A stretch of 64,000 nucleotides of DNA from an uncultured Chloroflexia bacterium (GCA_963829105.1 CAWHHF010000019.1:8549-72548), one strand, 5' to 3'; positions 14,532 to 54,508 are shown, numbered from the stretch's first letter. Notes: a model not told the origin generated them from the sequence alone. Made by a program: numbers and translations.

Positions 14532-15373
14532 AGCCCCGCCTGCTGGTATTCGTCGCCGCGCTGCTGCTGATCCTCGCCGCCTGCTCCGGCGGCGGCGCCT
14601 CACCGACAACCAGCAGCGCGCCGACGGTCGCCCCGGCAACGACAGCGCCGGACACCGCGGCCGCCGTGGACCTGACGATCTACGGCGCGGCGTCGCTCAA
14701 GGGCGCGCTCACGGCGGCCAAGACCGCGTACGAGGCCGCGAACCCCGGCCTGACCCTCACGATCTCGACGGACGCATCGTCAGCACTCGAGACGAAGATC
14801 GAGCAGGGTGCCCCGGCCGATGTCTTCCTGTCCGCCGACACCAAGAACCCGCAGACGCTGGTCGACAAGGGGCTGGCCGTGGCGCCGCCGGTCACCTTCG
14901 CCACCAACAGGCTCACCGTGATCGTGCCGACGGGCAACCCGGCCGGGATCAAGACGCCCGCCGACCTGGCCAAGCCCGGCGTCAAGATCATCGCGGCGGG
15001 AGACGCCGTGCCGATCACGAAGTACGCCAACCAGCTGGTGGCCAACCTGGCCAAGGAGCCGGGCTACCCGGCCGATTTTGCTGCCGCCTGCACGGCCAAC
15101 ATCGTGTCCAAGGAGGACAACGTCAGCGCGGTGGTGGCGAAGATCGAGCTGGGCGAGGGCGACGCCGGGATCGTCTACGTCACCGACGCGAAGGCCTCGA
15201 CGAAGGTGGCGACCATCGACGTGCCCGACACGGCGAACGTGATCGCGACGTATGACGGCGTCGTGGTCAAAGCCTCTCCGAACCTCGACGCGGCCAATGC
15301 GTTCCTGACCTGGTTCGCCGGCCCGGACGGCCAGGCCATCTTGGCCACCTTCGGGTTCCTGCCGCCGTCATGA
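14528..15373 (+). CDS. modA: Molybdate ABC transporter substrate-binding lipoprotein
   Basis: Lipobox LILAAC. YGAASLKGAL ... DVFLSADTKNP ... GIVYVTDA pattern. Confidence 0.9.
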   Translation: MKPRLLVFVAALLLILAACSGGGASPTTSSAPTVAPATTAPDTAAAVDLTIYGAASLKGALTAAKTAYEAANPGLTLTISTDASSALETKIEQGAPADVFLSADTKNPQTLVDKGLAVAPPVTFATNRLTVIVPTGNPAGIKTPADLAKPGVKIIAAGDAVPITKYANQLVANLAKEPGYPADFAAACTANIVSKEDNVSAVVAKIELGEGDAGIVYVTDAKASTKVATIDVPDTANVIATYDGVVVKASPNLDAANAFLTWFAGPDGQAILATFGFLPPS

Positions 15374-16251
15374 CCGCGGACGCCACAGGGCGTTCCGGGG
15401 ACCGCTCGGCTGCGACCGGTCGGCCCGCACCGGCCGCGGCGCGCCAGGGACGATGGGGTGAGTGGTCACTCACGGCGATCGCCGGCCTGTTCGCGCTGTT
15501 CCTCGGCCTCCCGGTCGCCACGCTGGTGGCCAGGGCGATCATCACCGGGTCCTTCGGGGTGGCGCTCGCCTCGCCCGAGGTTCTCGACGCGCTCTGGCTC
15601 AGCCTCGTCACGACATCGATCAGCCTGGTCATCACCGTGACCCTCGGCCTCCCGCTGGCCGTGGTGCTCGCCCGCCGGCAGTTCCGTGGCAAGGGATTGG
15701 TGGAGGCCGTCGTCGACCTGCCGATCGTGCTGCCACCGTCGGTCGCCGGGCTCGCGCTGCTCCTCGTGTTCGGGCGGCGGGGCCTGCTCTCGGCGCCGTT
15801 CGAGCTCCTCGGCATCTCCGTCCCGTTCACCACCGTCGCCGTGGTCCTCGCCATGACGTTCGTGTCGGCCCCGTTCTTCGTCCGCTCTGCGCGGATCGGC
15901 ATCGCCGGCGTGGACCGGGAGCTCGAGGACGCGGCTCGAGTGGACGGTGCCTCCGAGCGTCACCTGTTCCGCACCATCACCGTCCCGCTGGCAGGGGCGG
16001 CGCTGGCCGGCGGCCTGGTCATGACCTGGGCGCGATCGCTGGGCGAGTTCGGAGCGACGATCATGTTCGCCGGGAACGTCCAGGGCCGCACCCAGACGCT
16101 CCCCCTCGTGGTGTACAGCGAGTTCCAGGGTGGCGGCCTCGACGCCTCGGTCGCCGCGGCGGCGATCCTGGTGCTGGCGGCGTTCGGGGTTCTCGTCGCC
16201 GTCCGCGTCTTCCACTGGGGACACGCTCTCGACGTTCGTGGCCTCGGGTGA
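15370..16251 (+). CDS. modB: Molybdate ABC transporter permease
   Basis: ATGA overlap with modA. VDLPIVLPPSVAGLALLLVFGRRG and EAA loop EDAARVDGASERHLFRTITVPLA. Confidence 0.9.
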   Translation: MTADATGRSGDRSAATGRPAPAAARQGRWGEWSLTAIAGLFALFLGLPVATLVARAIITGSFGVALASPEVLDALWLSLVTTSISLVITVTLGLPLAVVLARRQFRGKGLVEAVVDLPIVLPPSVAGLALLLVFGRRGLLSAPFELLGISVPFTTVAVVLAMTFVSAPFFVRSARIGIAGVDRELEDAARVDGASERHLFRTITVPLAGAALAGGLVMTWARSLGEFGATIMFAGNVQGRTQTLPLVVYSEFQGGGLDASVAAAAILVLAAFGVLVAVRVFHWGHALDVRGLG

Positions 16252-25431: not shown

Positions 25432-26544
25432 ATGTCCACACCCGGCTCCACCGGGAGTCGCCGGCGTCTCACGGCGCTGCGGGTCGCTGCCCAGCACATC
25501 GGCAGCGGCGGCTTCTCGGCGCCCGGCGAGACCGTCCGCTGGATGCTGGCCCTGCAGGCCCAGGACTTCCCGGGCGTCAAGTGGTCGGTCGGCCTCCGCC
25601 AGGCGGGCGCGACCGAGGCCGCCGTCGACGCGGCGTTCGACGCCGGCGAGATCGTGCGCTCCTGGCCCCTCCGCGGCACCCTCCATCTCGTGGCGGCAGA
25701 GGACCTCGGGTGGCTGCTGGCGCTCACCGCACCGCGGTCGATCGCCTCGACGGCCGGACGTCGGGCGGCCCTCGGGCTCACGGAGGCCGACGTCGAACGC
25801 GCCGGCGCAGTCGCGCGATCCGTGCTGGCCGGCCGTCGGTCCCTGACCCGCAACGCGCTCCTCGCGACGTTCAGTGCGGCCGGTGTCAGCACCGCCGGCC
25901 AGCGTGGCTACCACCTGCTCTGGCACCTCGCCCAGGCACGCGTGCTCGTCCTGGGCCCGACCGATGGCCGGCAGCAGGCCTTCGCGCTGCTCGACGAGTG
26001 GGTGCCGCACCCGAGGCGGCTGGAGCGCGATGAGGCGCTGGGCGAGCTCGCGCTGCGCTACTACCGGAGTCACGGACCGGCGACGGCCGCCGACCTCTCC
26101 CGGTGGGCCGGCCTGACTGCGAATGACGTGCGACGCGGGCTGTCGGTCTGCGGGAGCCGGCTCACGACCCTTGAGCTCGACGGGCTGACCTACAACCTCG
26201 CGCCGGAGACCCTGGCCGTGGCCGCGCCGGTCGCCCGCGTGCACCTCCTGCCCGGCTTCGACGAGTACCTGCTGGGCTACGGGGATCGGACCGCGGCGCT
26301 GGCGGCGGAGCACAGCGAGGCGATCGTCCCGGGCGGCAACGGCATGTTCAAGTCGACGATCGTCGTGGATGGCGAGGTCGTCGGCACCTGGGGACGGACG
26401 ATCCGGGCCCGCGAGGCCGTCGTCGAACCGGTCCCGTTCGACCGCCTGTCGGCCGACGTGCTGGACGAGCTCGCTGTGGCCGCTCGAGCGTACGGTGCCT
26501 TCCTGGGGCGATCGGTCCGGCTGGCCGGACCCGCGGTCCCGTAG
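25432..26544 (+). CDS. Winged-helix DNA glycosylase-like protein (YcaQ/AlkZ, DUF1006)
   Basis: MLALQAQDFPG (Q-x-Q), SWPLRGTLHLV, LLPGFDEYLLGY, VVDGEVVGTW. Confidence 0.8.
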   Translation: MSTPGSTGSRRRLTALRVAAQHIGSGGFSAPGETVRWMLALQAQDFPGVKWSVGLRQAGATEAAVDAAFDAGEIVRSWPLRGTLHLVAAEDLGWLLALTAPRSIASTAGRRAALGLTEADVERAGAVARSVLAGRRSLTRNALLATFSAAGVSTAGQRGYHLLWHLAQARVLVLGPTDGRQQAFALLDEWVPHPRRLERDEALGELALRYYRSHGPATAADLSRWAGLTANDVRRGLSVCGSRLTTLELDGLTYNLAPETLAVAAPVARVHLLPGFDEYLLGYGDRTAALAAEHSEAIVPGGNGMFKSTIVVDGEVVGTWGRTIRAREAVVEPVPFDRLSADVLDELAVAARAYGAFLGRSVRLAGPAVP

Positions 26545-26588
26545 CCGCAGGAGCCAGCCTCGCAGGAGACGACTCGTCCCCCGTCGCG

Positions 26589-26780
26589 TCAGCGGCGGCG
26601 ACGTCGCAGAGGCCCACCCGTGAGCCAGTCGAGCAGCGAGCCCACGATCCAGGCCAACAGGCGCAGGAGCCAGTAGAGGATCGCGAGGGGCCAGGCGACG
26701 ATCAGCAGCAGGATCGTGATCAGGCAGCCGTGATCGCCGCCCTGGCGGACGACGATGACGTGCGGCCGCTCCCTGGTCAT
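26589..26780 (-). CDS. Small 2-TM membrane protein (63 aa)
   Basis: GCLITILLLIVAWPLAILYWLLRLLAWIVGSLL. Last gene of the glsB-csbD string. No clear Shine-Dalgarno sequence. Confidence 0.4.
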   Translation of the reverse strand: MTRERPHVIVVRQGGDHGCLITILLLIVAWPLAILYWLLRLLAWIVGSLLDWLTGGPLRRRRR

Positions 26781-26833
26781 GCGACGGCTACCACGCGCGC
26801 CGTGTCGTGCACATCGAGGCCAGGGTGCGACGC

Positions 26834-26880
26834 CTTGCGTCAGGCATGCTTGTCCTTGCGTCAGGCATGCTTGTCCTTGC
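26834..26880. repeat. 21-bp tandem duplication (x2.2) that includes the csbD stop codon
   Basis: cttgcgtcaggcatgcttgtc at 26834-26854 and 26855-26875, plus cttgc. On the coding strand: GACAAGCATGCCTGACGCAAG x2. Confidence 0.9.
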
Positions 26881-27043
26881 CGACGGCGTCGTGGACATCG
26901 CCCAGGCCGTCCTGGACCTTGCCCTCGACCTTCTGGACTTTGCCCTTCGTCTCGAGCTTCTGGTCGCCGGTCAACTTGCCGACGCCTTCGTTGACGGTGC
27001 CCTTGACGGTGTTGACGGCACCCTTGACATGCTGGTCGGTCAT
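26861..27043 (-). CDS. csbD: CsbD-family stress protein
   Basis: MTDQHVKGAVNTVKGTVNEGVGKLTGDQKLETKGKVQKVEGKVQDGLGD. ATGA overlap with the upstream gene. Confidence 0.85.
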   Translation of the reverse strand: MTDQHVKGAVNTVKGTVNEGVGKLTGDQKLETKGKVQKVEGKVQDGLGDVHDAVGKDKHA

Positions 27044-27309
27044 GAGACGCTTCCCCTTGCTCCGCGCGACGTGAACATCCGCGCGACGAAGATGACGACG
27101 ATGGCGCCGAACACGGCGACGATGAGGCTGGTCAGGTTGAAGCCCGTGATGTCAGCGATGCCGAGCAGGGTCCCGGCGATGAAGCCACCGACCACGGCGC
27201 CGACGATCCCGAGGATGACCATCATGACGAGGCCCTCGCCTCCGCCCATGATGAGGTTGGCGATGAACCCGGCGAGCGCGCCCAGCACGATCCAGGCGAT
27301 GATCCCCAT
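27040..27309 (-). CDS. GlsB/YeaQ/YmgE (transglycosylase-associated) family membrane protein
   Basis: MGIIAWIVLGALAGFIANLIMGGGEG...ILGIVGAVVGGFIAG. Confidence 0.85.
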   Translation of the reverse strand: MGIIAWIVLGALAGFIANLIMGGGEGLVMMVILGIVGAVVGGFIAGTLLGIADITGFNLTSLIVAVFGAIVVIFVARMFTSRGARGSVS

Positions 27310-27398
27310 GGGAGCAGTTCCTTTCGTATCGCGCCCGCCAGTGACGGGCTACATTCCGGGCGATCCTGTGCTGCAGTACGCACCCCGAGTCGTGCGAT

Positions 27399-27419
27399 GT
27401 CATGACGGACCGTCATTCC
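27399..27419. promoter_or_regulatory. Palindromic operator-like site, copy a
   Basis: GTCATGACGGACCGTCATTCC, 90 bp upstream of the glsB ATG (27309). Confidence 0.5.
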
Positions 27420-27456
27420 ATCAGGGCCCGCGCGCTGCGAGCGGTGACCGGAAGGC

Positions 27457-27477
27457 GTCATGAAGGGTCGTCATGAC
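27457..27477. promoter_or_regulatory. Palindromic operator-like site, copy b
   Basis: GTCATGAAGGGTCGTCATGAC. Its centre is 58 bp from the centre of copy a. Confidence 0.45.
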
Positions 27478-27788
27478 GCCCGGACACGCCCCGGGCACAC
27501 TCTCGGTCGACCGTGCGAACGGTGATCCCGGCTGCCACCCGGCACGATCCGGAGTCGTCAAGCCGCCCGGCCCGCTGGAGCGTCCCATGTTCCCGATCAG
27601 GCCTATGAGCTACACCGGAGCGGCCGGCTCCGGTAATGCGCCTCCCGCGCACACCGAGGCCTGACCATGACGATGCTGCTATCCGGATTTAGGTTGCTGT
27701 TGCGTGCCCGCCCCTCCTTGCGACTGCGGCGGGGACGGCGCCCGGTGGGCCGCGGCGCGACGGCCGGGCCCGAACAGGCGGCCTCCAA

Positions 27789-28688
27789 GTGACGCGGGCG
27801 CTGGTCATCGGACGCCGCCTGCCGGGGCGCGAGATCGGCAAGGCGGTGCGCGAGGCGCGCAGACAACTGAGGGCTGAGGGCTGGTCGACCGATGGCACCC
27901 TCGTCACGACCAAGGGCCAGCTCCGCCACCGGGCGGCCCGCGCCGTGAAGCGTGGCGTGGACGTGGTCGTGGCCGTCGGGGGCGACGGCACGGTGCTGCA
28001 GGTCGTGCAAGCGCTCGCCGACACGCGGGTCGCGCTCGGGATCGTCCCGATGGGGACGGGCAACCTCCTGGCGGGCAACCTGGACATCCCGAAGGGCGTG
28101 GATGATGCCGCGAAGGTGCTCGTGGGTGGCGGCCGACGCCGGATCGACCTCGGGAGACTATCGGTCGGCGGCAAGCGGACGATGTTCGCAGTTGCTTGCG
28201 GCGTCGGCTTCGACGCGGAGATCATGGAGTCAACGGGGCGGGACGCCAAGGAGCGCCTCGGGAAGCTCGCCTACGTGGCGAGCGCGATCCGGCGGCAGGG
28301 CCAGGTCCACGACGTCACGCACGAGGTCACCCTCGACGGCGTCCACCAGTCGATGGAGGCGGCCCAGGTCCTGATCGCGAACTTCGGCGGGATGGGGGCC
28401 GGGATCAGGGCGCGCCTGGAGGTCCACCCCGACGACGGGCTCCTTGACGTGTTGGTGATCCGCGCGTCGGGTCCGCTGGGAGGCCTGCTCGCGGGCTGGG
28501 AGGCCCTCCGGCAGGACGAGCCCGGGGAGAGCCCCGAAGGGCATGTCTTCCGGACCCGGGCCCGGAAGGTCCGGGTCTCGACTACGTCACGCCGGCTCGT
28601 CGAGACCGATGGGAGCGTTGCCGGCAGGACACCCATCAGGGTCTCCGTGCGGCCCGCTGCGCTCACCGTGATCGTTCCGGCGACATGA
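27789..28688 (+). CDS. Diacylglycerol/lipid kinase family protein (YegS-like)
   Basis: VVVAVGGDGTVLQVV, GIVPMGTGNLLAGNL. 299 aa. GTG start. Confidence 0.85.
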   Translation: MTRALVIGRRLPGREIGKAVREARRQLRAEGWSTDGTLVTTKGQLRHRAARAVKRGVDVVVAVGGDGTVLQVVQALADTRVALGIVPMGTGNLLAGNLDIPKGVDDAAKVLVGGGRRRIDLGRLSVGGKRTMFAVACGVGFDAEIMESTGRDAKERLGKLAYVASAIRRQGQVHDVTHEVTLDGVHQSMEAAQVLIANFGGMGAGIRARLEVHPDDGLLDVLVIRASGPLGGLLAGWEALRQDEPGESPEGHVFRTRARKVRVSTTSRRLVETDGSVAGRTPIRVSVRPAALTVIVPAT

Positions 28689-28857
28689 TCCGAGGAGCAT
28701 TGCCAAGCTCGTGCGCGTACCCGGCCCCGGGGAGGGATCGGGTCGCACCTCTCGTTGCCATCAACCGATCTGGAGGCGGCGACCAGGGAGTCCGGCGACA
28801 TGTTGTAGGCGACCAAGACGTAGAGCCCGGTCAGCGTCCACGCAAGGGTGGCAGAGG

Positions 28858-29949
28858 ATGAACGCCGCCGGCCCGGTGCCGGTGTCCGCTGGCGCTCATG
28901 CCGTCGAGGCGGCCGCGGAGCTGAGCGCCGCAGGGCGGCGGTTCGGGAACGTCATCGCACTCGACGACATCAGCCTCGCAGTCGCCCCGGGCTCGCTTGT
29001 CGGGATCATCGGACCGAGCGGAGCCGGCAAGACGACGACGGTCCGCCTGCTCACGGGCGGCCTCCGCCCGACGAGCGGAACGGTCCGGGTCCTGGGCGAG
29101 GACCCGACGCGACTCCGGGCCGCTACCCGTGAGCGGATCGGCTTCATGCCCCAGAACGTGTCGCTCTACGACGACCTCACGGTGGCGGAGAACCTCGACT
29201 TCATGGGGAGCCTGTTCGGCATGTTCCTCCCCCGGCGCCGACGGCGGATCAAGGCGATCCTGGCCTGGCTCGAGCTGGAGGATGCGCGCTCGCGGCGGGC
29301 CGTGCACCTGTCCGGGGGGATGCGCCGCCGTCTCCAGCTCGGCTGCGCGCTCATCCACGATCCGCAGCTGGTCTTCCTCGACGAGCCGACCGGTGGGATC
29401 GATCCGATCGTCCGCCACGCGATCTGGACCGAGCTCCGCCGGCTTCGCGATGCCGGTCGGACGCTCATCGTGACCACCCAGATCGTCACCGAAGCCGAGG
29501 AATGCGACACGGTCGCGCTCATCACCCAGGGCAGGCTGATCGCTCACGCCGCGCCCGAGGAGCTGCGGCGCGAGGCGTTCGGCGGCGAGCTGCTCGAGGT
29601 CGAGACCTCGGGCTTGGTCGACGCGGAGCGACTGGGGCGGCCCCCGGGGATCGACGACGTCCGCCAGGTCACTCCGCGCCGGCTCGTGTTCGTTGCCCGG
29701 GACGCGGCCAGCGCCACCCCCGCCGTGATCTCCGCCGTGGAGACGACCGGGGTCTCGGTGACCTCGATCCAGACGACACGGCCGTCGTTCGACGAAGTCT
29801 TCGTCAGGCTCGTTCAGCGGGCGGGAGGGACGCTCCCCGGCGATGCGGAGGCAGGCGAGGCGAGGGGCTCTGTCCGGGCCGAACCCGGCCCAGGGGCCGG
29901 CCCGCCGCCCGCCGTCGGGGGATCCGGTGTGCCGGCGGAGGTCGCGTGA
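28858..29949 (+). CDS. ABC transporter ATP-binding protein (ABC-2 exporter type)
   Basis: ATG 28858 is in frame within ORF 28711..29949. GPSGAGKTT, LSGGMRRR, VFLDEPTGGID. Confidence 0.9.
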   Translation: MNAAGPVPVSAGAHAVEAAAELSAAGRRFGNVIALDDISLAVAPGSLVGIIGPSGAGKTTTVRLLTGGLRPTSGTVRVLGEDPTRLRAATRERIGFMPQNVSLYDDLTVAENLDFMGSLFGMFLPRRRRRIKAILAWLELEDARSRRAVHLSGGMRRRLQLGCALIHDPQLVFLDEPTGGIDPIVRHAIWTELRRLRDAGRTLIVTTQIVTEAEECDTVALITQGRLIAHAAPEELRREAFGGELLEVETSGLVDAERLGRPPGIDDVRQVTPRRLVFVARDAASATPAVISAVETTGVSVTSIQTTRPSFDEVFVRLVQRAGGTLPGDAEAGEARGSVRAEPGPGAGPPPAVGGSGVPAEVA

Positions 29950-31133
29950 TGCGGCTCTTCAAGCTCCTGCTGCGGGTCTTCGCGGTCATGGGCAAGGAGG
30001 TCGTCGAGGTGCTCCGGCGGCCGCGGGCTCTCGTCAGCATCGTCGCCGGACCTGTCCTCATCCTGGGCCTGTTCGGCCTCGGCTACGTGGGCCAGCCGCC
30101 CCTGCGCGCCGAGCTCGTGATCCCGACCGGGATCGGGCTCCCGACCGATCCAGCGAGCTTCGCGTCCATCGCCGGTGACCGGATCTCGATCGCCGGGATC
30201 ACGCAGGACCCCGCCGAGGGACGTGACGTCTTGCGACGCCACGCTGCCGACCTGCTCGTCATCGTGCCGCCGGACGCGAAGGACCGGCTGGCCAAGGGTG
30301 AGCAGACCGTCCTCGACGTCGAGTACAACACGGTGAGCCCGTACCGGGCCTTCGTGGCGAGGGCGGCCGCAGACGCGATCGTCGCCGGCGTGAACAGGCA
30401 GATCATCCAGACGGCGGCGAAGGAGGCGGCCGACCGGGCGGCAGCCGCCGGCCAGCCGGTCACCGTCGCACCCGAGGTCGTCGCCGCCCCGACGCGGGCA
30501 GAGGTCGTGAATCTCGCGCCCAGCGAACCCGACGTCGTTGCCTTCTACGGGATCATGGTCCTGGCCCTGATCGTCCAGCACACCGTCATCACCGTCAGCT
30601 CCCTGTCCATGCTCCACGACCGACGCCGAGGCATGCTCGACCTGTTCCGGATCTCCCCGATCGGGAGCGGCGAGATCCTGGCCGGCAAGTACGCCGCGTT
30701 CACGCTGCTGGGGACGGTGGTGGCCCTGGCCGTCCTGGCCATCCTCGTGTTCGCCTTTGGAGTGCCGTTCCTGGGCGGGCCGGGCGTCGTCCTCGGCTGC
30801 CTCGCGCTCCTCGTCGTCGCCTCGATCGGGATCGGCACGGTCGTGGCGCTCCTCTCCGACACCGACCGCCAGGCCATCCAGGTCTCGCTGCTCATTCTCC
30901 TCGCGTCGGTGTTCTTCAGCGGGCTCGCCATCGACCTGGACCAGTTCTCCGCTCCCGTCAGGATGATCGGCCAGCTGCTCCCGGTCACCCAGGCCGGAAC
31001 GCTACTCCAGGACCTGCTGCTGCGGGGCTCGGCGTCCGACGCGTGGCGCATGGCAGTGCTCGCGACGATGGCAGGCGGGCTGTTTGCCGTCGGCTGGCTG
31101 ATCCTTCGCCGCCAGATGGTCCGTCCCGCCTGA
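29949..31133 (+). CDS. ABC-2 family permease
   Basis: The ATG overlaps the ATPase stop. N-terminal TM, large external loop, and five C-terminal TMs. Confidence 0.8.
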   Translation: MRLFKLLLRVFAVMGKEVVEVLRRPRALVSIVAGPVLILGLFGLGYVGQPPLRAELVIPTGIGLPTDPASFASIAGDRISIAGITQDPAEGRDVLRRHAADLLVIVPPDAKDRLAKGEQTVLDVEYNTVSPYRAFVARAAADAIVAGVNRQIIQTAAKEAADRAAAAGQPVTVAPEVVAAPTRAEVVNLAPSEPDVVAFYGIMVLALIVQHTVITVSSLSMLHDRRRGMLDLFRISPIGSGEILAGKYAAFTLLGTVVALAVLAILVFAFGVPFLGGPGVVLGCLALLVVASIGIGTVVALLSDTDRQAIQVSLLILLASVFFSGLAIDLDQFSAPVRMIGQLLPVTQAGTLLQDLLLRGSASDAWRMAVLATMAGGLFAVGWLILRRQMVRPA

Positions 31134-31422
31134 TCGGCGGATACGTCCGGACGGCCTCGAAGGCCGTGCGACTGGCGTCGCCGAGACGGCAGCGGCGTCT
31201 GGGCCATGACGATCGGTCACCGAGGTCTGAGGCGTGCTGCCGGGCGATCCTCGTCCGCATGAGGCCAGGTCGCGGCGCAGGGCCCCGGTCGCAGGGTCCC
31301 AGCGATCGGCCGCAGCCGGCCTCTGGGAGGCCTTCGCCGCGTGGGTTTGCGATGATCCGGGCTCAACGCTGCACCAGCGGGCGACCCAGCCCCAGCCGGT
31401 GAACGACCTGGAGTCTGATGCG

Positions 31423-31944
31423 ATGTGGGAGCTTGGCGTCAATCCCCTGGAACTGGTCGCGCGGACCGCGATCATCTACGTGCTCTTCTTCGGTGCCCTG
31501 CGCCTCTCCGGAAAACGCGAGATCGGCCAGTTCACCCTGTTCGATCTCGCGCTCGTGCTGCTTGTCGCCAACGCGCTCCAGCCGGCCATGACCGGAGCGG
31601 ACCAGTCGGTCCTGGGTGGTGCGATCATCCTGGCCACGATCTTCATCCTCAATCGCCTCGTCTCGGAGGCTCGCGTCCGGATCCCCTTCGTCCGGAGGAT
31701 CCTCGAGTTCAAGCCGACGACGATCGGGCGAGATGGGAAGTGGCTCAAGAAGGAATTTGCCCGCCAGGGCATCGATCTCGGGGATGCCGACGCGGCCCTC
31801 CGGCAGCACGGTCTCGAGCGCGTCGAGCAGATGAAGCTGGCCACCCTCGAGGAGGACGGGTCGATCAGCATCGTCGCCGCGGACGATGGCGCGTCGGTCG
31901 AGGTCCATCGGCGAAACCGCCGCTACCGTCGGTCCCGGCTGTAG
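31423..31944 (+). CDS. DUF421 (YetF-like) membrane protein
   Basis: LVARTAIIYVLFFGALRLSGKREIGQFTLFDLALVLLVANA..., then a soluble C-terminal domain. Confidence 0.75.
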   Translation: MWELGVNPLELVARTAIIYVLFFGALRLSGKREIGQFTLFDLALVLLVANALQPAMTGADQSVLGGAIILATIFILNRLVSEARVRIPFVRRILEFKPTTIGRDGKWLKKEFARQGIDLGDADAALRQHGLERVEQMKLATLEEDGSISIVAADDGASVEVHRRNRRYRRSRL

Positions 31945-32017
31945 GCGCGCCGGCATGGTCCTCGGCCACGCGGAGGCAGGCGGAGTCCGGCGCAACGGCC
32001 CCGATCGCGGCCACGTG

Positions 32018-32038
32018 ACGATGACGGACCGTCATGAC
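32018..32038. promoter_or_regulatory. Palindromic operator-like site, copy c
   Basis: ACGATGACGGACCGTCATGAC, about 92-109 bp upstream of the mini-ORF/small-peptide pair. Confidence 0.5.
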
Positions 32039-32146
32039 GCCCCGGTTGCGGGATCGCAGACTCGCATCGCGCCGACGGCGTCATCAGCCGTCCTCCGAGT
32101 CTGACGACCGGTGGCGCAAGGAGCACTCCATGACCGGGAGATCGAG

Positions 32147-32230
32147 ATGAGAAGCGGTGGCGTTGGGATCGGCGGCGTGATCGTGATCGTGGTGGTGATC
32201 CTCATCCTGGTCGGCGTCATCAGGCTGTGA
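32147..32230 (+). CDS. 27-aa hydrophobic peptide, coupled to a 6-codon mini-ORF (32130-32150)
   Basis: AAGGAG-N6-ATG ACC GGG AGA TCG AGA TGA. That TGA overlaps ATG 32147 (ATGA), which encodes MRSGGVGIGGVIVIVVVILILVGVIRL. The peptide is below the ORF-track size cut-off. Confidence 0.3.
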   Translation: MRSGGVGIGGVIVIVVVILILVGVIRL

Positions 32231-32374
32231 GCCCGGGACGCGAGCCCGCGCCGCCCCGTCGGTGACCGCGCTCGCTCGTCGCGCTCACGGCGTCGGCGCG
32301 CCCAAGCCCCGCGGCCAGCTCCGCGCCACCACCGGATCGGAGGCGTCGATGCCGCTCGACGCGCGCGGCGCGCC

Positions 32375-34483
32375 ATGACACTCGAAGACGACAGCGCGGC
32401 CGAGCCGGCTGCCCGCGGCCGGCTCGCGTTCTACCGCCTGCAGGTCCGCCTGATGTGGGACTGGCGACCGACGCGCCTCGCGATCGTGCGACGCGCGGTC
32501 CTGTCCTACCTGGGAGCCTGCCTGGCCCTCGCCATCACGGCCGGGGTGATCCCCGACATGTACATCGACGGGCTGGCGTCGCTGGCGCTGGCCGGATTGT
32601 TCCTGGTGGCCCTGGACAGCTCGGTTGCCGTCGTCCTCCACGGGCTGCTGGTGCGACTGCCGATCTTCGTCGCCCAGGTCCTTGGCGTGGCAGCCCAGGC
32701 CGCGGCCATTCTCGTCCTCGGGCGGGTGCTGCCTGGGGTCCACGTGGGTGATACCGCTGCGGCCGTCTGGGGCGCGGTGCTCCTGACGGTCCTCAACAGC
32801 CTGTTCGCGGAGCTCGTGGCGGTGAGCGACGACGACTCGTACTACTCCGTCCTCGTGCGCCGGCTCGTGGCCAGGGAGTACGGACGGCCGAAGGACCCGG
32901 TCCCGGGGCTGCTCGTCGTTCAGGTCGATGGCCTCAGCCTCCCGGTGCTGCGCGAGGCGATCCGGGCCGGCCGGGCGCCCGTGCTCGGCCGGCTCGTGCG
33001 CAGCAGCGAGGCGGTGCTCCACCCGTGGATCGCCATGCTGCCGCCCACCACGCCGGCCAGCCAGGGTGGGATCCTGCACGGCAACAACGACGGCATCGCC
33101 GGCTTCCGCTGGTTCGAGAAGGCGAGTGCCAGGCTGCTGGTGGCCAACCATCCCGAGGATGCGGCCGAGATCGTCCGTCGCATCAGCGATGGCAACGGCC
33201 TCCTGGCGGACGACGGCGCCGGCATCGGCAACCTCGTGACCGGCGACGCGCCCCGCAGCTACCTGACCATGGCCACGATCGAGGAGCCTGCGCCGGCCTC
33301 CGACGATCGGCGCATGCGCGGCTTCTTCGTCACGACCGTCAACTACATCCGCCTCCTGGTGCTGATGGGCGGCGAAGTGGCCAAGGAGCTCTACCAGGCC
33401 GAGCGCCAACGGGCCCGGTCGGTCGAGCCGCGGATGCACCGCGACCTGCATTTCGCGGTCGAGCGCGCCGCGACGAACGTCGCCCTGCGAACGGTGTCCA
33501 CGGCCCTGGTCATCGAGGAGATGTACGGGGGGGCTCCCACGATCTACGTGGACTACACCGGCTACGACGCCATCTCGCACCACTGCGGCCCGGAGCGCGC
33601 GGAGGCGATCGACGCGCTCGATGGCATCGACCGGGCCCTCGGGTCGCTGCTCAAGGCCGCCCAATACACCGGCCGGCCGTACCGGATGGTCGTGCTGTCC
33701 GATCACGGCCAGTGCCTGGGCGCCACGTTCGAGCAGCGTTGCGGCGAGACGCTCGAGGCGGTGATCGCGGGACACCTGCCGGACGCGATGACCGTCGCGG
33801 GGACAACCGGCTCGGTCGAGTCGGCCGGCTTCGGCCGGCGGATCGCGGCCGAGTTCGGGCGAGGCTCGGGCATGGGTCCGCTGGTGGCACGCGTGCTGCC
33901 CAGCGCCCTGCGGCGCTCCGGGGCTCGGAGAGGCGGTCCCGAGACGCAGCCCCCGGACGTCGTCGTGGCCTCGTCCGGCAACCTGGCCCACGTCTACTTC
34001 ACGAGCCACCCGGACCGGATGCCCCTGGAGGCGATCGAGGCGCGCCACCCGGGCCTCGTCGAGGCACTGGCGCGGCACCCCGGGATCGGGGCCGTGATCG
34101 CCAGGTCGGCCGCCGGCCACCCGATCGTCTTCGGGGCCAACGGCCGGAGCGACCTCTCGGCGGTCCAGCCCGATGGCGTCGACCCCCTGGTCGACTACGG
34201 TCCCCGGGCGGCGGACAGCGTGCGGCGCCTCGAGGCCTTCCCGAACGCCGGCGACCTCATCCTGCTTGGCGCGATCGACCCGGTCACCGGGGAGGTCACC
34301 GGCTTCGAGGAGCTCGTCGGCTCGCACGGCGGCCTGGGCGGCTGGCAGACCGAGCCGTTCATCCTCTGCCCGGCGACCTTCACCCTCGTGGACGATCCGC
34401 CGATCGGGGCGCCGGCGCTCTATCGCCAGCTGGTGGCGTGGCAGGCGCTGCTGCGGGGACCGACCGATGGGCCGGCGCGATGA
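32375..34483 (+). CDS. Membrane-anchored alkaline-phosphatase-superfamily (phosphodiesterase/pyrophosphatase-like) protein with holin-family-4-like N-terminal TM module
   Basis: Four N-terminal TMs, then VVQVDGLSLPVL..., MLPPTTPASQGGILHGNNDGIAGFRWF, DYTGYDAISHHCGP, VVLSDHGQ. Confidence 0.8.
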   Translation: MTLEDDSAAEPAARGRLAFYRLQVRLMWDWRPTRLAIVRRAVLSYLGACLALAITAGVIPDMYIDGLASLALAGLFLVALDSSVAVVLHGLLVRLPIFVAQVLGVAAQAAAILVLGRVLPGVHVGDTAAAVWGAVLLTVLNSLFAELVAVSDDDSYYSVLVRRLVAREYGRPKDPVPGLLVVQVDGLSLPVLREAIRAGRAPVLGRLVRSSEAVLHPWIAMLPPTTPASQGGILHGNNDGIAGFRWFEKASARLLVANHPEDAAEIVRRISDGNGLLADDGAGIGNLVTGDAPRSYLTMATIEEPAPASDDRRMRGFFVTTVNYIRLLVLMGGEVAKELYQAERQRARSVEPRMHRDLHFAVERAATNVALRTVSTALVIEEMYGGAPTIYVDYTGYDAISHHCGPERAEAIDALDGIDRALGSLLKAAQYTGRPYRMVVLSDHGQCLGATFEQRCGETLEAVIAGHLPDAMTVAGTTGSVESAGFGRRIAAEFGRGSGMGPLVARVLPSALRRSGARRGGPETQPPDVVVASSGNLAHVYFTSHPDRMPLEAIEARHPGLVEALARHPGIGAVIARSAAGHPIVFGANGRSDLSAVQPDGVDPLVDYGPRAADSVRRLEAFPNAGDLILLGAIDPVTGEVTGFEELVGSHGGLGGWQTEPFILCPATFTLVDDPPIGAPALYRQLVAWQALLRGPTDGPAR

Positions 34484-34502
34484 CGGCCCCGGCGACCCCG
34501 AC

Positions 34503-34679
34503 CTAGCGGAGGTGCAGGTCCACGCCCAGAAGGACGAGCGGCCACAGCAGCACGGCAAGGACTGCCGAGAGGATGGGCATCAGGGCATTGAGCGTCACCA
34601 GGTAGTCGTGACTTGACGCGACGACCAAGCCCACGACGAGATAGACGATGCTGATGATTGACGAAATCCCGGATCGCAT
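34503..34679 (-). CDS. Small 2-TM membrane protein (58 aa)
   Basis: MRSGISSIISIVYLVVGLVVASSHDYLVTLNALMPILSAVLAVLLWPLVLLGVDLHLR. AGGAG lies 5 nt upstream. Shortened from ORF 34503..34790. Confidence 0.5.
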   Translation of the reverse strand: MRSGISSIISIVYLVVGLVVASSHDYLVTLNALMPILSAVLAVLLWPLVLLGVDLHLR

Positions 34680-34785
34680 GTGTGCTCCTGAGCAGAGGCC
34701 GCCCCGATAGGTTGAGGCCAGCACGAGGGCCACCTTTGGGCCGACGTGCTGCGCTGCAGTCTCAGTCTGCGCGGTCGGGAGCGAG

Positions 34786-34806
34786 CGCATGACGGTGCGT
34801 CATGAC
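34786..34806. promoter_or_regulatory. Palindromic operator-like site, copy d
   Basis: CGCATGACGGTGCGTCATGAC, 107 bp upstream of ATG 34679. Confidence 0.5.
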
Positions 34807-34993
34807 AAGCGATGGGTTCCGACAGATGGCGCCGTCCTTCGGTTCACCCTCAGGGAGGTCGTGCCGGCGCCGCCTGACCGCCGGAACGGCCCGATCCCGC
34901 GGACCTGTCGACTTCACCCCTTCAGGTGGGGTCCGAGGCCCTGACATGACGCGCCCTTGAGGTGTGCTCCGGATGGGGCTCGCCCCCGGGCGG

Positions 34994-35293
34994 TCAGATG
35001 CCCTCACCGGCGCTTGCGTCGGTCACGGCACGGTGGCTGGAGCCGACCATGCTCGCGGCCAGGACAAGGACCAGCGCGCCGATCACGACCAGCGCGATGG
35101 TCGCGAGGCCGGCGACGGTCCTCGTTCCACCCAGGGCGTCCTGGAGGTCGCCGAGACGCATCTGAGCGAAGCCCTGGACCTGCCTGGACCGTCCGCGACG
35201 TTGCCTTCGCCGATCTCCGATCAGCTTGCCGAATGCTTCCTCCACCTTGCCCTGGGCCTGGCTTACGGTGCCCTTGACGTGCTCATCGGTCAT
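34994..35293 (-). CDS. CsbD-like protein with C-terminal TM segment
   Basis: MTDEHVKGTVSQAQGKVEEAFGKLIGD..., then LATIALVVIGALVLVLAASMV. GAAAGGAAC lies upstream, as it does for glsB. Confidence 0.7.
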   Translation of the reverse strand: MTDEHVKGTVSQAQGKVEEAFGKLIGDRRRQRRGRSRQVQGFAQMRLGDLQDALGGTRTVAGLATIALVVIGALVLVLAASMVGSSHRAVTDASAGEGI

Positions 35294-35431
35294 CTCGGGG
35301 TTCCTTTCACTTGCGTTCTACGGAGCGCCGTCGCGAGGATCATAGGAGGCATGCTGCGAGCCTGCGCCACTGCTCAAGTCGCCTGGCTCCGCCCTGGAGC
35401 TCGCGAAGGCCTCACCTACTGTGTGGCCGCG

Positions 35432-35452
35432 GTTGCTCCCAGTCATGACGGT
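35432..35452. promoter_or_regulatory. Palindromic operator-like site, copy e (one arm degenerate)
   Basis: GTCATGACGGTCCGTAACAAC, 139 bp upstream of ATG 35293 and 97 bp upstream of the MFS GTG at 35549. Confidence 0.4.
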
Positions 35453-35548
35453 CCGTAACAACGTCCGCGGCAGGCCTCGGCCCGGCACCCGCCGAGCGCG
35501 GCGTCCTCCGCCGGACCACGCGGCGCCGGCCCGCCAGGCCGTCGATCG

Positions 35549-36961
35549 GTGGCCACTCGGCCCGCGAGACAGACCCCCTGCGTGCGACCATGGAGCGTGT
35601 CCGCCGATCAGCCGTCCGCACGACGCCGGACGTCTCCGCTCGCGTCGCTGCGCGCGCTGCCCGACGAGTTTCCGCGCGTGGTGCTGGTCCTCGCCTGCGG
35701 CGATCTGGTCGCGAGCTTCGGCTTCAGCCTGTTCTTCCCGTTCCTGACGATCTACCTCGTCCAGACGCTGGGCGCGTCGGCCGCCCAGGCGGGCCTGGTC
35801 GTCGCGGCGTACTCCGTGTTCTCCGTCTTCTCGGGGATCGCGGGAGGTTGGCTGGCGGACCGGATCGGCCGCCGCCCGGTGCTCATCGGCTCGATCTCGT
35901 GCACGGCGGTCCTGGTGCTCGCGATGGCGATGGCGACCGAGGTCTGGCACGTCGCGCTGGTGATGCTGCTCCTGGGCTGCATCGATCCCGCCTTCCTCCC
36001 GGCCGCCCGTGCGGCGGTCGCCGACACGGTCGAGGAGCCGCGACGACCCCGGGCCTTCGGCCTGCTCAGCGTCGCGAACGCGGTCGGATGGATCGCCGGC
36101 CCGGTCATCGGCGCGGGCCTGTCGTCGCTCGGATACCCGCTGCTGTTCGCCGTCAGCGGCGTCCTGGTCGGGTGCTACTCCGTCATCGCGTTCCGATGGC
36201 TCCCGGAGACCCGGCCGCGGGCCGAGAAGCCAGCGCGCGCGGATCCGGAGGCGTCCCGAACTCCGGACCTCCGGGACACGCCCGGCCGGCCCGACCCGGC
36301 CGGCGGGCTGCGACGCCGGATCTTCTGGGCGCTGCTCCCGCTCCTGGCGGTCACCCATGCGCTGACATTCCTGTGGGTGACGACGCTGCCGATCTATGCC
36401 GCCGTCAGCCTCGGCCTCCCGACGCCGATCTGGGGGCTCCTGTTCGGGCTCAACGGGCTCCTGATCGTCCTGTTCCAGCTCCGGATCGCCGGCGCGTGCG
36501 AGGGACGATCCAAGCCGCGGGTCATGGCCGCCGCGGTCTCCCTCTATGCCCTCGGGCTGGCGCCCGTCGCGCTCCTGTCGCCCTCCTCGGCGGTCCTGGG
36601 CCTCGCGGTCACCATCGCGCTGGTGACCGTGGGCGAGATGCTCATGGGGCCGGTGGTGGCCGCGTTCGTGTCCGACCTGTCGCCGGTGGCCCGGCGCGGC
36701 ACGTACCAGGGGATCGCCCTCGCGGCCGGCGGCATCGGCTCCGGGATCGGGCCGCCGATCGCCGGCCAAGTCCTCGACACATCCCACGGCTCTGCGCTGT
36801 GGGTGGTCGCTGCGGCGCTCCTCGTCACGGTGGGCCTGGGCTTCGTGGTGCTGGCCAGGTGGACGGACAAGCTGCCGGCGTGTCTGCCCGAGCACGCGGA
36901 GGACGGGCCGCCCACCGCTCGAACCGCGGCGATCCCGTCCACGGACCCCACGCCCCCGTGA
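35549..36961 (+). CDS. MFS transporter (12-TMS type)
   Basis: GGWLADRIGRRPVLIG motif and 12 hydrophobic segments. The start is uncertain (GTG 35549 or a downstream GTG). Confidence 0.8.
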   Translation: MATRPARQTPCVRPWSVSADQPSARRRTSPLASLRALPDEFPRVVLVLACGDLVASFGFSLFFPFLTIYLVQTLGASAAQAGLVVAAYSVFSVFSGIAGGWLADRIGRRPVLIGSISCTAVLVLAMAMATEVWHVALVMLLLGCIDPAFLPAARAAVADTVEEPRRPRAFGLLSVANAVGWIAGPVIGAGLSSLGYPLLFAVSGVLVGCYSVIAFRWLPETRPRAEKPARADPEASRTPDLRDTPGRPDPAGGLRRRIFWALLPLLAVTHALTFLWVTTLPIYAAVSLGLPTPIWGLLFGLNGLLIVLFQLRIAGACEGRSKPRVMAAAVSLYALGLAPVALLSPSSAVLGLAVTIALVTVGEMLMGPVVAAFVSDLSPVARRGTYQGIALAAGGIGSGIGPPIAGQVLDTSHGSALWVVAAALLVTVGLGFVVLARWTDKLPACLPEHAEDGPPTARTAAIPSTDPTPP

Positions 36962-52765: not shown

Positions 52766-53746
52766 TCAGTCCTTCTTGGCCTTGGCGTCCTCGGCCTCCT
52801 CGATGGCCACCTCCTCGGCGTCCCGGGCCATGACCACGGTGTCCTCGGCCTCCTCGATCGCGACCTCCTCGACCTCGCGGGCGAGCGCCACGGTGTCCTC
52901 GGCCTCCTCGATCGCCGCCTCCTCGACGTCAGCGGACAGCGCCACGACGTCCTCGGCCTCCTCGATCGCGGAGTCCTCGACCGCGAGGGCCAGCGCCACG
53001 ACATCGGCCGCCTCCTCCATGGCGGCCTCTTCGATGAGCTCGGCCGCGAACAGGGTGTCGATGACGTCCGCGGCCGCGGCATCCTCGATCGCGAGCGCCA
53101 TGGCGACGACATCGGCGGCCTCGGCGATGGCGGCCTCCTCGATGAGCTCCATCTCGACGAGGGTCCGGGCGATGTCCATCGCGGCCATCAGCTTGATCTG
53201 CTCGGCGGCCTCGATGGCGTCCTCGGCCTCCATCTTGGCGCGCAGCTCGTCGCCCACGAGGGCCAGGGCATCGGGCGTGATCATCGCCTGCATCAGCGTG
53301 TGGCCGCCGGCGTCGCCGATCGCGTCGCGCAGGCTGGCCGCCCAGTGGTGCTCGATGACGAGGATGCCCGCCGCCCCGCCCGCGGGGATGGACTCGGCGA
53401 GCTCGTTCAGCCGGTCGACGCTCAGGCCGGCGTCCCGCTCGGCGATGGCGAGCGCGCCCAACTCGGCGCCGACGGCCGCGCCCTCGAAGCCCCCGGCGTG
53501 GAGGCCCATCAGGGCGCCGGCGATCGAGCCGAGGCGCATCCGCTCGGTCTCGGACAGGTCGGTCAGGTGCATCGTGTTCTCGATGCTGCCGTCCATGTCC
53601 TTCTGGACGAACAGGATGTCGACGATCCGGATGAGGCCGCGCTTCCGCACCCGGCGCAGCTCGGCCAGGATCCTGCCGGTCGCCTCGAACTTGTCGAACC
53701 CGATCACGAACACCTGGATCGGGCCCGTCACGTGCTTGTCGCTCAT
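52766..53746 (-). CDS. Soluble DUF1269/DUF6325-like two-module protein with polyacidic 18-residue repeat tail
   Basis: PIQVFVIGFDKFEATGRILAELRRVRKRGLIRIVDILFVQKDMDG..., PAGGAAGILVIEHHWAASL, then (I/M)EEA(E/A)D(V/T)V recurring every 18 aa from residue 207 to 315. Confidence 0.7.
   Translation of the reverse strand: MSDKHVTGPIQVFVIGFDKFEATGRILAELRRVRKRGLIRIVDILFVQKDMDGSIENTMHLTDLSETERMRLGSIAGALMGLHAGGFEGAAVGAELGALAIAERDAGLSVDRLNELAESIPAGGAAGILVIEHHWAASLRDAIGDAGGHTLMQAMITPDALALVGDELRAKMEAEDAIEAAEQIKLMAAMDIARTLVEMELIEEAAIAEAADVVAMALAIEDAAAADVIDTLFAAELIEEAAMEEAADVVALALAVEDSAIEEAEDVVALSADVEEAAIEEAEDTVALAREVEEVAIEEAEDTVVMARDAEEVAIEEAEDAKAKKD
52787..53149 (-). repeat. 54-bp coding tandem repeats (about 6.5 units)
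   Basis: gtcctcggcctcctcgatcgc recurs with a 54-nt period. It encodes the acidic tail. Confidence 0.8.
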
Positions 53747-53881: not shown

Positions 53882-54508
53882 TCAGCCCTCGGCGGCCGGG
53901 GCGGCGGAGTCGGCGGCTACGGCCGCGGCCTTGATCGCCTCCGTGGTCTCCTCGTCGACCGGGACCGACTTGACCTCCTGGGCGTCGGGCATCTTCAGCC
54001 TGACGTCCTCGACGGCCGTCGCCGACACGAGGCACAGGATGCCCGAGGTGCCGGGGGTGATGACGTCGGCGAGCTCCTTCTCGACCTCGACCCGGTGGTA
54101 GAGGTTGCGGGCCTTGCCCGCCGCGGCGCCCGCGAACCCGAGCGTGACGGCCCCGGCGACGATCGTGGCCGGCAGGAAGATCCCCGCTACCACGCCGCCG
54201 ACGATGCCCCACTTGAGGCCCGTCCGGGTGCTGTGCTCGGTCATCTTCTGGATGTGGATCCGGCCGTCGGCGTCGGCCTTGGCCACGAGGACGCCGTCGA
54301 TCTCGAGCGAGCCGTCGATCTCGGCCGCCAGGAGCTCGTCGTAGATCGCGATGGCCGACTGGGTGTCGGCGAAGCGGGCCACGATCAGGGCGTGGTCGCC
54401 CTGGGTCGCGATGGCAGCCTCGGCGAGCACGCCCTTGTCATCGGCAACCTGGCCGGCGACGACGACGACGTCGTCCGCGGACGGAGCGGTGGTCTTCTCT
54501 TCGGTCAC
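53882..54508 (-). CDS. DUF1269-type membrane protein
   Basis: GTG 54508 lies 8 nt after AGGAG. HALIVARFADTQSAIAIYDELLAAEIDGSLEIDGVLVAKADADGRIHI. Glycine-zipper TMs GIVGGVVAGIFLPATIVAGAVTLGFAGAAAG. ITPGTSGILCLV. Confidence 0.75.
   Translation of the reverse strand: MTEEKTTAPSADDVVVVAGQVADDKGVLAEAAIATQGDHALIVARFADTQSAIAIYDELLAAEIDGSLEIDGVLVAKADADGRIHIQKMTEHSTRTGLKWGIVGGVVAGIFLPATIVAGAVTLGFAGAAAGKARNLYHRVEVEKELADVITPGTSGILCLVSATAVEDVRLKMPDAQEVKSVPVDEETTEAIKAAAVAADSAAPAAEG

Follow-up and report, generated by a model that had tools for sequence, protein, structure and literature searches.

Among response regulators that belong to the OmpR/PhoB family, proteins that act at the -35 region, such as PhoB of Escherichia coli, are usually activators. 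The PhoB site overlaps or replaces the -35 hexamer at a fixed distance from the -10 hexamer, PhoB contacts sigma region 4, and this geometry resembles that of the element described here, a palindrome that occurs five times (sites a to e) in a 64,000-nucleotide stretch of DNA from an uncultured Chloroflexia bacterium (GCA_963829105.1, CAWHHF010000019.1:8549-72548), called the window below. With high confidence, we regard the palindrome sites as a conserved cis-regulatory promoter element, and we lean towards reading them as the operator-promoter module of a general-stress-like regulon of the Limnocylindria, which would be activated by an orphan regulator of the OmpR type. The candidate, which we found in related genomes, belongs like PhoB to the winged-helix OmpR/PhoB family, and the two PhoB/pho box entries PDB 1GXP and 3T72 are among its structure matches. 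The PhoB half-site TGTCAT is also close to the CGTCAT of our sites. However, the pho box is bound head-to-tail and consists of direct repeats at a period of 11 bp, whereas the arms of the site described here are inverted, their centres lying about 10 bp from each other. The receiver of PhoB is moreover canonical and PhoR is its cognate kinase, while the candidate is an orphan that lacks the conserved Lys and is distant from solved OmpR-family structures.

Other described systems share single features with the window sites. HP1043/HsrA of Helicobacter pylori, ChxR, GlnR and JadR1 are orphans like the candidate; they have a degenerate receiver, as the candidate may have, and are presumed to be phosphorylation-independent. 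The GTCATGAC arms in the window are themselves palindromic, which is a further likeness to HP1043-type sites. Yet HP1043 shows no detectable close relationship to the candidate, its motif (TTTAAG-N5-TTTAAG) and regulon content differ, and the candidate keeps the phospho-acceptor Asp and Thr, unlike HP1043-type regulators. At class II promoters of CRP/FNR the dyad lies at about -41.5 over the -35 region and in strict register with the -10, as here, but these dimeric regulators belong to another protein family, their dyads are even-centred (22 or 14 bp) and the -35 is usually poor, while TGAC is conserved at our sites. DosR/DevR of mycobacteria is a response regulator that acts on a GAC...GTC palindrome of about 20 bp in front of small stress or dormancy genes, which again recalls the window; DosR is, however, of the NarL/LuxR type and has cognate kinases, and its motif (GGGACTTTTAGTCCC core) and spacing differ from the site described here. 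The regulons of sigma-B (Bacillus), RpoS (E. coli) and EcfG (Alphaproteobacteria) share gene content with ours, namely CsbD/YjbJ, GlsB/YmgE/YeaQ, DUF1269, Gly-zipper and small membrane proteins. In contrast to these, the promoters considered here consist of a dyad and sigma-70-like hexamers instead of an alternative-sigma consensus, and control is apparently exerted by a DNA-binding activator.

A search with GTCATGACGGNCCGTCATGAC, allowing up to three mismatches, found exactly five matches in the window (27399-27419, 27457-27477, 32018-32038, 34786-34806 and 35442-35462) and none in 100 dinucleotide-preserving shuffles of this DNA of about 71% GC. The original prediction, made from the sequence of the window, had named five near-identical sites as far beyond chance, which is borne out by this comparison, and the sequences are as written there. 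Its coordinates were right for sites a to d and 10 bp too far to the left for site e, which had been placed at 35432-35452. A position weight matrix (PWM), built from independent sites in other genomes and then run over the window, scored 44.1 for site c, 33.2 for b, 29.5 for e, 27.8 for a and 17.5 for d. The maximum in 20 shuffles was 11.3, and only sites a to e lie above this value in the 64 kb. All five are located between open reading frames (ORFs) with coding-type GC at third codon positions and are thus intergenic, as had been claimed. Two additional "weaker half-sites" proposed at 2624-2632 and about 34946 had to be discarded as coincidences, the PWM finding nothing at either position. 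The CGTCATGAC string at 2624-2632 contains the ATG of a minus-strand DUF385/F420H2_quin_red gene and its copy at 15366-15374, likewise rejected as a site, contains the ATGA stop/start overlap of two transporter genes; at about 34946 only a partial CATGACG is present.

What is conserved in more than 150 sites, taken from related metagenome-assembled genomes (MAGs) and from contigs of metagenomes, is the 15-bp inverted repeat ATGACGr-n-yCGTCAT. It is part of a composite promoter grammar, in which the dyad is followed by a GAC that gives a -35-like ATGACg, a spacer of exactly 17 nt and a -10-like hexamer, cAcACT. For 101 unique Chloroflexota sites the values at positions +37, +39, +40 and +41, counted from the first A of ATGACGG, are A80, A63, C70 and T82, and 55 of 63 regular-expression matches fall at one single offset. 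Of 31 non-Chloroflexota sites, only 1 has a -10-like match at the fixed spacing. To remove the bias of a motif search, the register was retested in 80 metagenome loci picked by the regulator protein only. These loci contain 76 core sites (at most two mismatches) in 290 kb, compared to 0.6 in shuffles, and in 63 of the 76 the pattern nAnnnT stands at precisely this offset, as against an expectation of about 3; the same-side flank is nearly always GAC. Overall, inverted repeat, TGAC and -10-like hexamer hold one register in about 80% of the more than 150 sites, which agrees with the earlier suggestion that the palindrome overlaps a promoter, with TGAC as -35 and a CAGACT-type -10.

When sites were anchored on the proximal arm and the -10 only, the distal arm was still conserved (A40, T44, G37, A44, C45 and G39 of 46), but the three bases beyond it, the outer GTC of the original prediction, were not. 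Since the distal arm is conserved and its flank is not, the repeat is inverted and the extra GAC belongs to the -35; for the same reason a direct-repeat reading (GTCATGAC-N5-GTCATGAC, 13-bp period) was rejected. Counted from the base at which the -10-like hexamer begins, the dyad centre is located 29 nt upstream and thus at about -41 relative to the predicted start, which is the geometry of a class II activator. Both characteristics of this class, a site centred at -41.5 over the -35 and a single strict register to the -10, are found here with respect to the predicted start. A scan for E. coli-type sigma-70 promoters returned none in 26500-36000, as expected at 71% GC, and the BldD-box, DosR, CRP and Rex motifs differ from the palindrome in spacing or sequence.

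Two variants of this arrangement were seen in other genomes, whose loci are labelled by L-codes. At L054:4803-4830, upstream of a GlsB gene, three GTCATGAC arms at 13-bp spacing make up two dyads that overlap, which hints at cooperative or alternative occupancy. Promoters of YggT-like genes (L080, L100, L042, L001 and others) share a leader 1-25 nt past the -10, for example CACACTcgcctcACGCCcgaGGCGTc, that could fold into a short hairpin where the mRNA begins at its 5' end. This leader is confined to the orthologous YggT-like promoter and is not seen across the regulon.

The exact 18-mer ATGACGGNCCGTCATGAC, scanned over one genome per species, occurs in at least 118 stretches. Among the matches listed, 88 of 118 are classed as Chloroflexota by record title, nearly all of them labelled Candidatus Limnocylindrales/Limnocylindria, uncultured Chloroflexia or Chloroflexota/Chloroflexi, and a few Anaerolineaceae. 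Genes of the window are 70-87% identical to these Chloroflexota MAGs at the DNA level, which assigns the window to this high-GC lineage, Candidatus Limnocylindria. The remaining 30 listed stretches are scattered over Streptomyces, proteobacteria and others. In gammaproteobacteria (L016, L063, L101) and Streptomyces (L013, L065) the 18-mer has the same flanks across species, in the manner of conserved coding DNA, and no -10 at the fixed spacing. The regulon, originally thought to be local, is instead lineage-wide, with sites in many Limnocylindria MAGs.

Coding DNA is avoided by the sites. Only 5 of 130 lie in confident coding interiors, where 67 are expected, and a second set gave 0 of 38 against 17 expected. 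In most cases a gene starts about 30-350 nt past the site. Near-absence from coding DNA together with promoter association speaks for a promoter element and against a repetitive extragenic palindromic (REP)-like element, the outcome by which the original prediction wished to be judged, and the conserved regulon that it anticipated in related genomes is seen in the same stress-type families behind sites of many MAGs.

The commonest first downstream gene in the other MAGs encodes a YggT-like membrane protein of about 140 aa (29 sites), followed by GlsB (8 sites), DUF1269 (8 sites) and ice-binding-like proteins (7 sites). CsbD, acidic proteins with GDFAxGE repeats, Gly-zipper and DUF4177 proteins are further recurrent families, and hydrophobic peptides of 27-30 aa recur as well, including clear homologues of the peptide encoded at 32147-32230 of the window. 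Sugar-binding and sugar-transport proteins, an FMN reductase and a PRC-barrel protein are also found behind sites. This content resembles that of general stress regulons elsewhere, and the recurrence of GlsB, CsbD, DUF1269 and other stress-type families supports the stress regulon that had been suggested for the window. At L014:4162-5142 and six other loci the targets are secreted ice-binding-like proteins (PF11999), and their recurrence suggests cold or freezing as one of the stresses to which the regulon responds. Since single MAGs have several perfect sites, for example six in CAWKHN01, there are probably tens of such promoters per genome. The window itself has two DUF1269-domain genes (52766-53746 and 53882-54508), a regulon family in other MAGs, and no site precedes either.

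Clustering of ORFs in 88 motif-selected 8-kb blocks revealed one response regulator of the OmpR/PhoB family as the commonest neighbour of the motif (35 of 88 loci). It contains the Pfam domains Response_reg (PF00072) and Trans_reg_C (PF00486). Its copies, one of which is the 247-aa protein encoded at L022:799-1542, share 70-80% identity, and the DNA-binding domain hardly varies among them. The best match among solved OmpR-family structures is KdpE (E = 3e-25, whole length); in the alignment to KdpE, the phospho-acceptor Asp (D59) of the candidate is retained, as is the Thr (T89), while the first acidic residue of its receiver is replaced by His and the conserved Lys by Met, Val or Thr. A kinase-like ORF was found near the regulator in 1 of 115 loci by a crude regular-expression test for an H-box and a G2-box in one ORF. 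Of 62 loci whose flank is long enough, 44 have a site no more than 250 nt past the stop codon of the regulator gene that points to the next gene, and in 13 of 59 loci a site lies within 300 nt upstream of the regulator, a dozen or so of these, at 90-204 nt, facing a divergent gene. The family is very abundant in public data, where it has generic names only among the matches listed, all of which are at least 77% identical. That the orphan OmpR-type regulator is the factor acting at the sites appears somewhat more probable than not.

We propose a mechanism that starts from features which are directly supported, namely the motif, the fixed -35/-10 register, the avoidance of genes by the sites, target families that recur, and a regulator gene that is linked to the motif. 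A dimeric transcription factor would bind the 15-bp inverted repeat, and this factor would be the orphan OmpR/PhoB response regulator with its atypical receiver, encoded elsewhere in the genome and probably bound head-to-head. The promoter-proximal protomer would abut sigma region 4 on TGAC, so that the bound dimer may switch the promoter on by class II activation, the weak -10 (cAcACT, no T at -12) making the promoter dependent on contact between dimer and polymerase. In the window, five promoters would be controlled in this way, those of glsB-csbD and a gene for a 63-aa transmembrane (TM) protein, TM63 (a), a small upstream ORF (uORF) with a DAGK-like gene (b), a mini-ORF with a 27-aa peptide and a holin-phosphodiesterase (c), a 58-aa TM protein (d, irregular) and a CsbD-TM protein (e). 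Binding by this regulator, the positive sign, the transcription starts and the inducing signal are what we infer. More tentatively, and as a possibility to which we give less credence than to the mechanism itself, the general stress response of Limnocylindria might be run by this single orphan OmpR-family regulator with no alternative sigma factor, bound head-to-head on a palindrome fused to the -35 of dozens of promoters; the stress would then possibly be desiccation, cold or osmotic stress. Head-to-head binding and such a regulatory role are unusual for the OmpR family.

Several points weigh against activation by the candidate. Canonical OmpR/PhoB regulators bind direct repeats head-to-tail, and the tandem direct repeats of 10-11 bp period by which their sites are recognised are not seen here, where the arms are inverted (ATGACG/CGTCAT). 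The candidate is not encoded in the window: no homologue was found in the 64 kb, and 20 further window ORFs compared to Pfam gave no transcription factor, as the original prediction of no cognate regulator in this stretch had it. Few sites point at the regulator gene and there is no clear autoregulation signature, and the linkage could reflect synteny with the YggT-like target instead of cognate function. The -35-like TGAC is well conserved, which is less typical of class II activated promoters and compatible with repression of the occlusion type. Site d and the -10 of site a depart from the consensus geometry. Finally, metatranscriptome contigs offered no usable 5' ends, and in L046, a relative of the Stordalen type, RNA contigs of low depth continue through the site. 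Against the usual direct-repeat habit of the family stands a precedent for head-to-head binding, since HP1043, an atypical OmpR-family regulator, has been modelled head-to-head on a site that is readable as direct or inverted repeat (PMC8345958).

The same anatomy could have the opposite sign, if a dimer of the response regulator or of another protein sat as a repressor on the -35 TGAC and kept RNA polymerase out until stress released it. Dyad and -35 hexamer share 2 bp, many repressors use palindromic operators that cover the -35, and with its strongly conserved -35-like TGAC the promoter might work without an activator. Yet about 80% of more than 150 sites in front of unrelated genes keep the exact -10 register, which repression does not need, the -10 is weak as in activator-dependent promoters (cAcACT, no T at -12), and OmpR/PhoB regulators acting at the -35 are usually activators. 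We therefore consider repression unlikely. Activation by the sites appears probable from their promoter geometry, because one register is kept across unrelated genes and contact-dependent activators, in contrast to repressors, need a register. Concerning the identity of the factor, a different transcription factor encoded elsewhere, for example of the Crp/Fnr, XRE, TetR or LuxR type, could read the palindrome, with the OmpR-type protein being a syntenic neighbour or a regulon member. Such a factor would fit the normal preference of OmpR/PhoB proteins for direct repeats, the fact that 15-bp palindromes with an odd centre are typical sites of other helix-turn-helix families, and the position of the regulator gene, mostly beside promoters that point to its neighbours and not to itself. 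But no second DNA-binding family recurs in the 88 motif loci, with ArsR, MerR, DtxR and IclR types each present in 1-4 of them, the motif is enriched more than 100-fold in regulator-selected loci, and a nearly invariant DNA-binding domain matches an invariant motif with a PhoB-like half-site. A different factor is thus about as unlikely as repression, and both alternatives keep some weight.

That the 21-mer and the downstream hexamer are the promoter of an alternative, general-stress sigma factor with no separate DNA-binding regulator is suggested by gene content like that of the sigma-B, RpoS and EcfG regulons (CsbD, GlsB/YmgE, DUF1269) and by the unusual and very uniform -10 (C/G at -12, ACT). 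This explanation would, however, leave the conserved inverted distal half-site 20-27 bp upstream of the -35 unexplained, the hexamers are unlike the consensus of sigma-B (GTTT-N-GGGTAT) or of extracytoplasmic function sigma factors (GGAAC-N16-CGTT), and no sigma factor gene recurs in the motif loci, so that we hold it to be very improbable. The palindrome is perfect or nearly so, and each genome has several copies, which would also suit a dispersed element of the REP-like or mobile palindromic kind, or the hairpin of a terminator, without a promoter role. Such a role is contradicted by the sites themselves and retains hardly any probability, since they lie 5' of genes with a fixed -10, are near-absent from coding DNA and yet do not cluster at 3' ends, and their flanking sequence is not repeated. 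No T-run follows any of the five sites, a terminator scan picks up none of them, and comparison of the whole window to Rfam covariance models gave no match at the gathering threshold.

Expression of GlsB and CsbD homologues is seen in metatranscriptome contigs, and the contigs stop aligning in the leader; no public RNA run contains the genome of the window, the share of sequence words being at most 0.13. Literature searches on the motif string yielded only primers and unrelated matches, and they returned no paper on gene regulation in Limnocylindria and none linking Limnocylindria with CsbD. The regulon is undescribed, yet of a conventional kind. Limnocylindria, an abundant class of Chloroflexota, are widespread in soils, peat, permafrost and lakes, and no genome recovered here comes from a cultured isolate. 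The motif offers a handle, from sequence only, on genes that would be switched together, including small membrane and hydrophilic stress proteins, ice-binding-like proteins and sugar uptake, and the candidate regulator is concrete and synthesisable and can be tested without culture. If its assignment is true, it would join HP1043 as a second well-defined example of an OmpR/PhoB protein of atypical type that reads an inverted repeat, and a general-stress-type regulon would be organised by an activator instead of a sigma factor. The fixed promoter grammar could also help to annotate small genes and transcription starts in Limnocylindria MAGs.

The sites of the window, their predicted promoters and the genes behind them are as follows.

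27399-27419, minus strand: site a; core dyad 27402-27416 (ATGACGGTCCGTCAT on the minus strand), proximal GAC 27401-27399; PWM 27.8; faces the glsB-csbD-TM63 operon
27375-27380, minus strand: -10-like hexamer of site a, CGTACT, 18 nt past GAC; deviant, without A at position 2
26589-27309, minus strand: operon 3' of site a; GlsB/Transgly_assoc (27040-27309), CsbD (26861-27043), 63-aa TM protein (26589-26780)
27457-27477, plus strand: site b; core 27460-27474 (ATGAAGGGTCGTCAT) followed by GAC; PWM 33.2; divergent from site a, centres 58 bp apart
27496-27501, plus strand: -10-like hexamer of site b, CACACT; predicted transcription start near 27508
27667-28688, plus strand: genes 3' of site b; 41-aa uORF (27667-27792), DAGK_cat/YegS_C lipid-kinase-like gene with GTG start (27789-28688)
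32018-32038, plus strand: site c; core 32021-32035 (ATGACGGACCGTCAT) followed by GAC; PWM 44.1, the top-scoring window site
32057-32062, plus strand: -10-like hexamer of site c, CAGACT; predicted transcription start near 32069
32130-34483, plus strand: genes 3' of site c; mini-ORF MTGRSR* (32130-32150), 27-aa hydrophobic peptide (32147-32230), 702-aa Phage_holin_4_2 and phosphodiesterase protein (32375-34483)
34786-34806, listed on the minus strand: site d; core 34789-34803; orientation ambiguous, PWM 17.5 on plus and 11.3 on minus
34503-34679, minus strand: gene for the 58-aa TM protein, presumed target of site d; no Pfam match
35442-35462, minus strand: site e; core 35445-35459 (GTTACGGACCGTCAT on the minus strand), GAC 35444-35442; PWM 29.5 on minus and -0.3 on plus
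35418-35423, minus strand: -10-like hexamer of site e, CACAGT; predicted transcription start near 35411
34994-35293, minus strand: CsbD-domain protein with C-terminal TM segment, target of site e
35549-36961, plus strand: MFS_1 gene (Pfam)

Pfam agrees with the names that had been given to the neighbouring genes (Transgly_assoc/GlsB, CsbD twice, Phage_holin_4_2 with Phosphodiest, and MFS_1). The targets assigned to three of the sites held in part. Site b exists as predicted, but it points away from glsB and toward the uORF and the DAGK/YegS-like gene. The 58-aa TM gene is kept as the presumed target of site d, although the promoter geometry is irregular: toward this gene the flank is GCG instead of GAC and a CAGACT (34769-34764) is 2 nt too close, while toward the plus strand GAC is present and a -10 is missing. 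The orthologue of this gene in L126 is preceded by a regular site. Site e, which had been assigned to both CsbD-TM and the MFS gene, points to the former only, since the plus orientation scores -0.3 and there is no promoter geometry toward MFS; CsbD orthologues stand behind sites in L003, L048, L001 and L070.

Promoter a aligns with the promoter of the YggT-like gene in the closest relatives, L106 and L113, and its orthologues have CCTACT in place of CGTACT. In these relatives (L113:4855-6590, L106:3745-4290) the order is motif, YggT-like, GlsB and CsbD; L113 also has the gene for the candidate regulator, which is divergent from the site. In the window (27309-27420) promoter a stands directly before glsB, and the YggT-like gene and the regulator gene are both missing, which in comparison to the close relatives points to a local deletion or rearrangement. 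At 26839-26880 a perfect 21-bp tandem duplication (two copies of gtcaggcatgcttgtccttgc) runs across the stop codon of the minus-strand csbD, so that the 3' end of csbD is repeated once just downstream.

At about 160-280 nt, the leader that would start from promoter b is of unusual length, and it holds a low-GC patch, CTATCCGGATTTAGGTTGCTGTTG. The uORF (27667-27792) is Arg-rich, has a GAGG ribosome-binding site and overlaps the start of the DAGK/YegS-like gene by GTGA; for this uORF/DAGK-like target of site b no confirmation was found in other genomes. Behind site c, the six-codon mini-ORF MTGRSR* overlaps via ATGA the start of the very hydrophobic 27-aa peptide MRSGGVGIGGVIVIVVVILILVGVIRL. Near-identical 27-aa peptides are encoded in L067, L050, L034, L039 and L008, and the copies in L067 and L050 are located behind sites of regular geometry.

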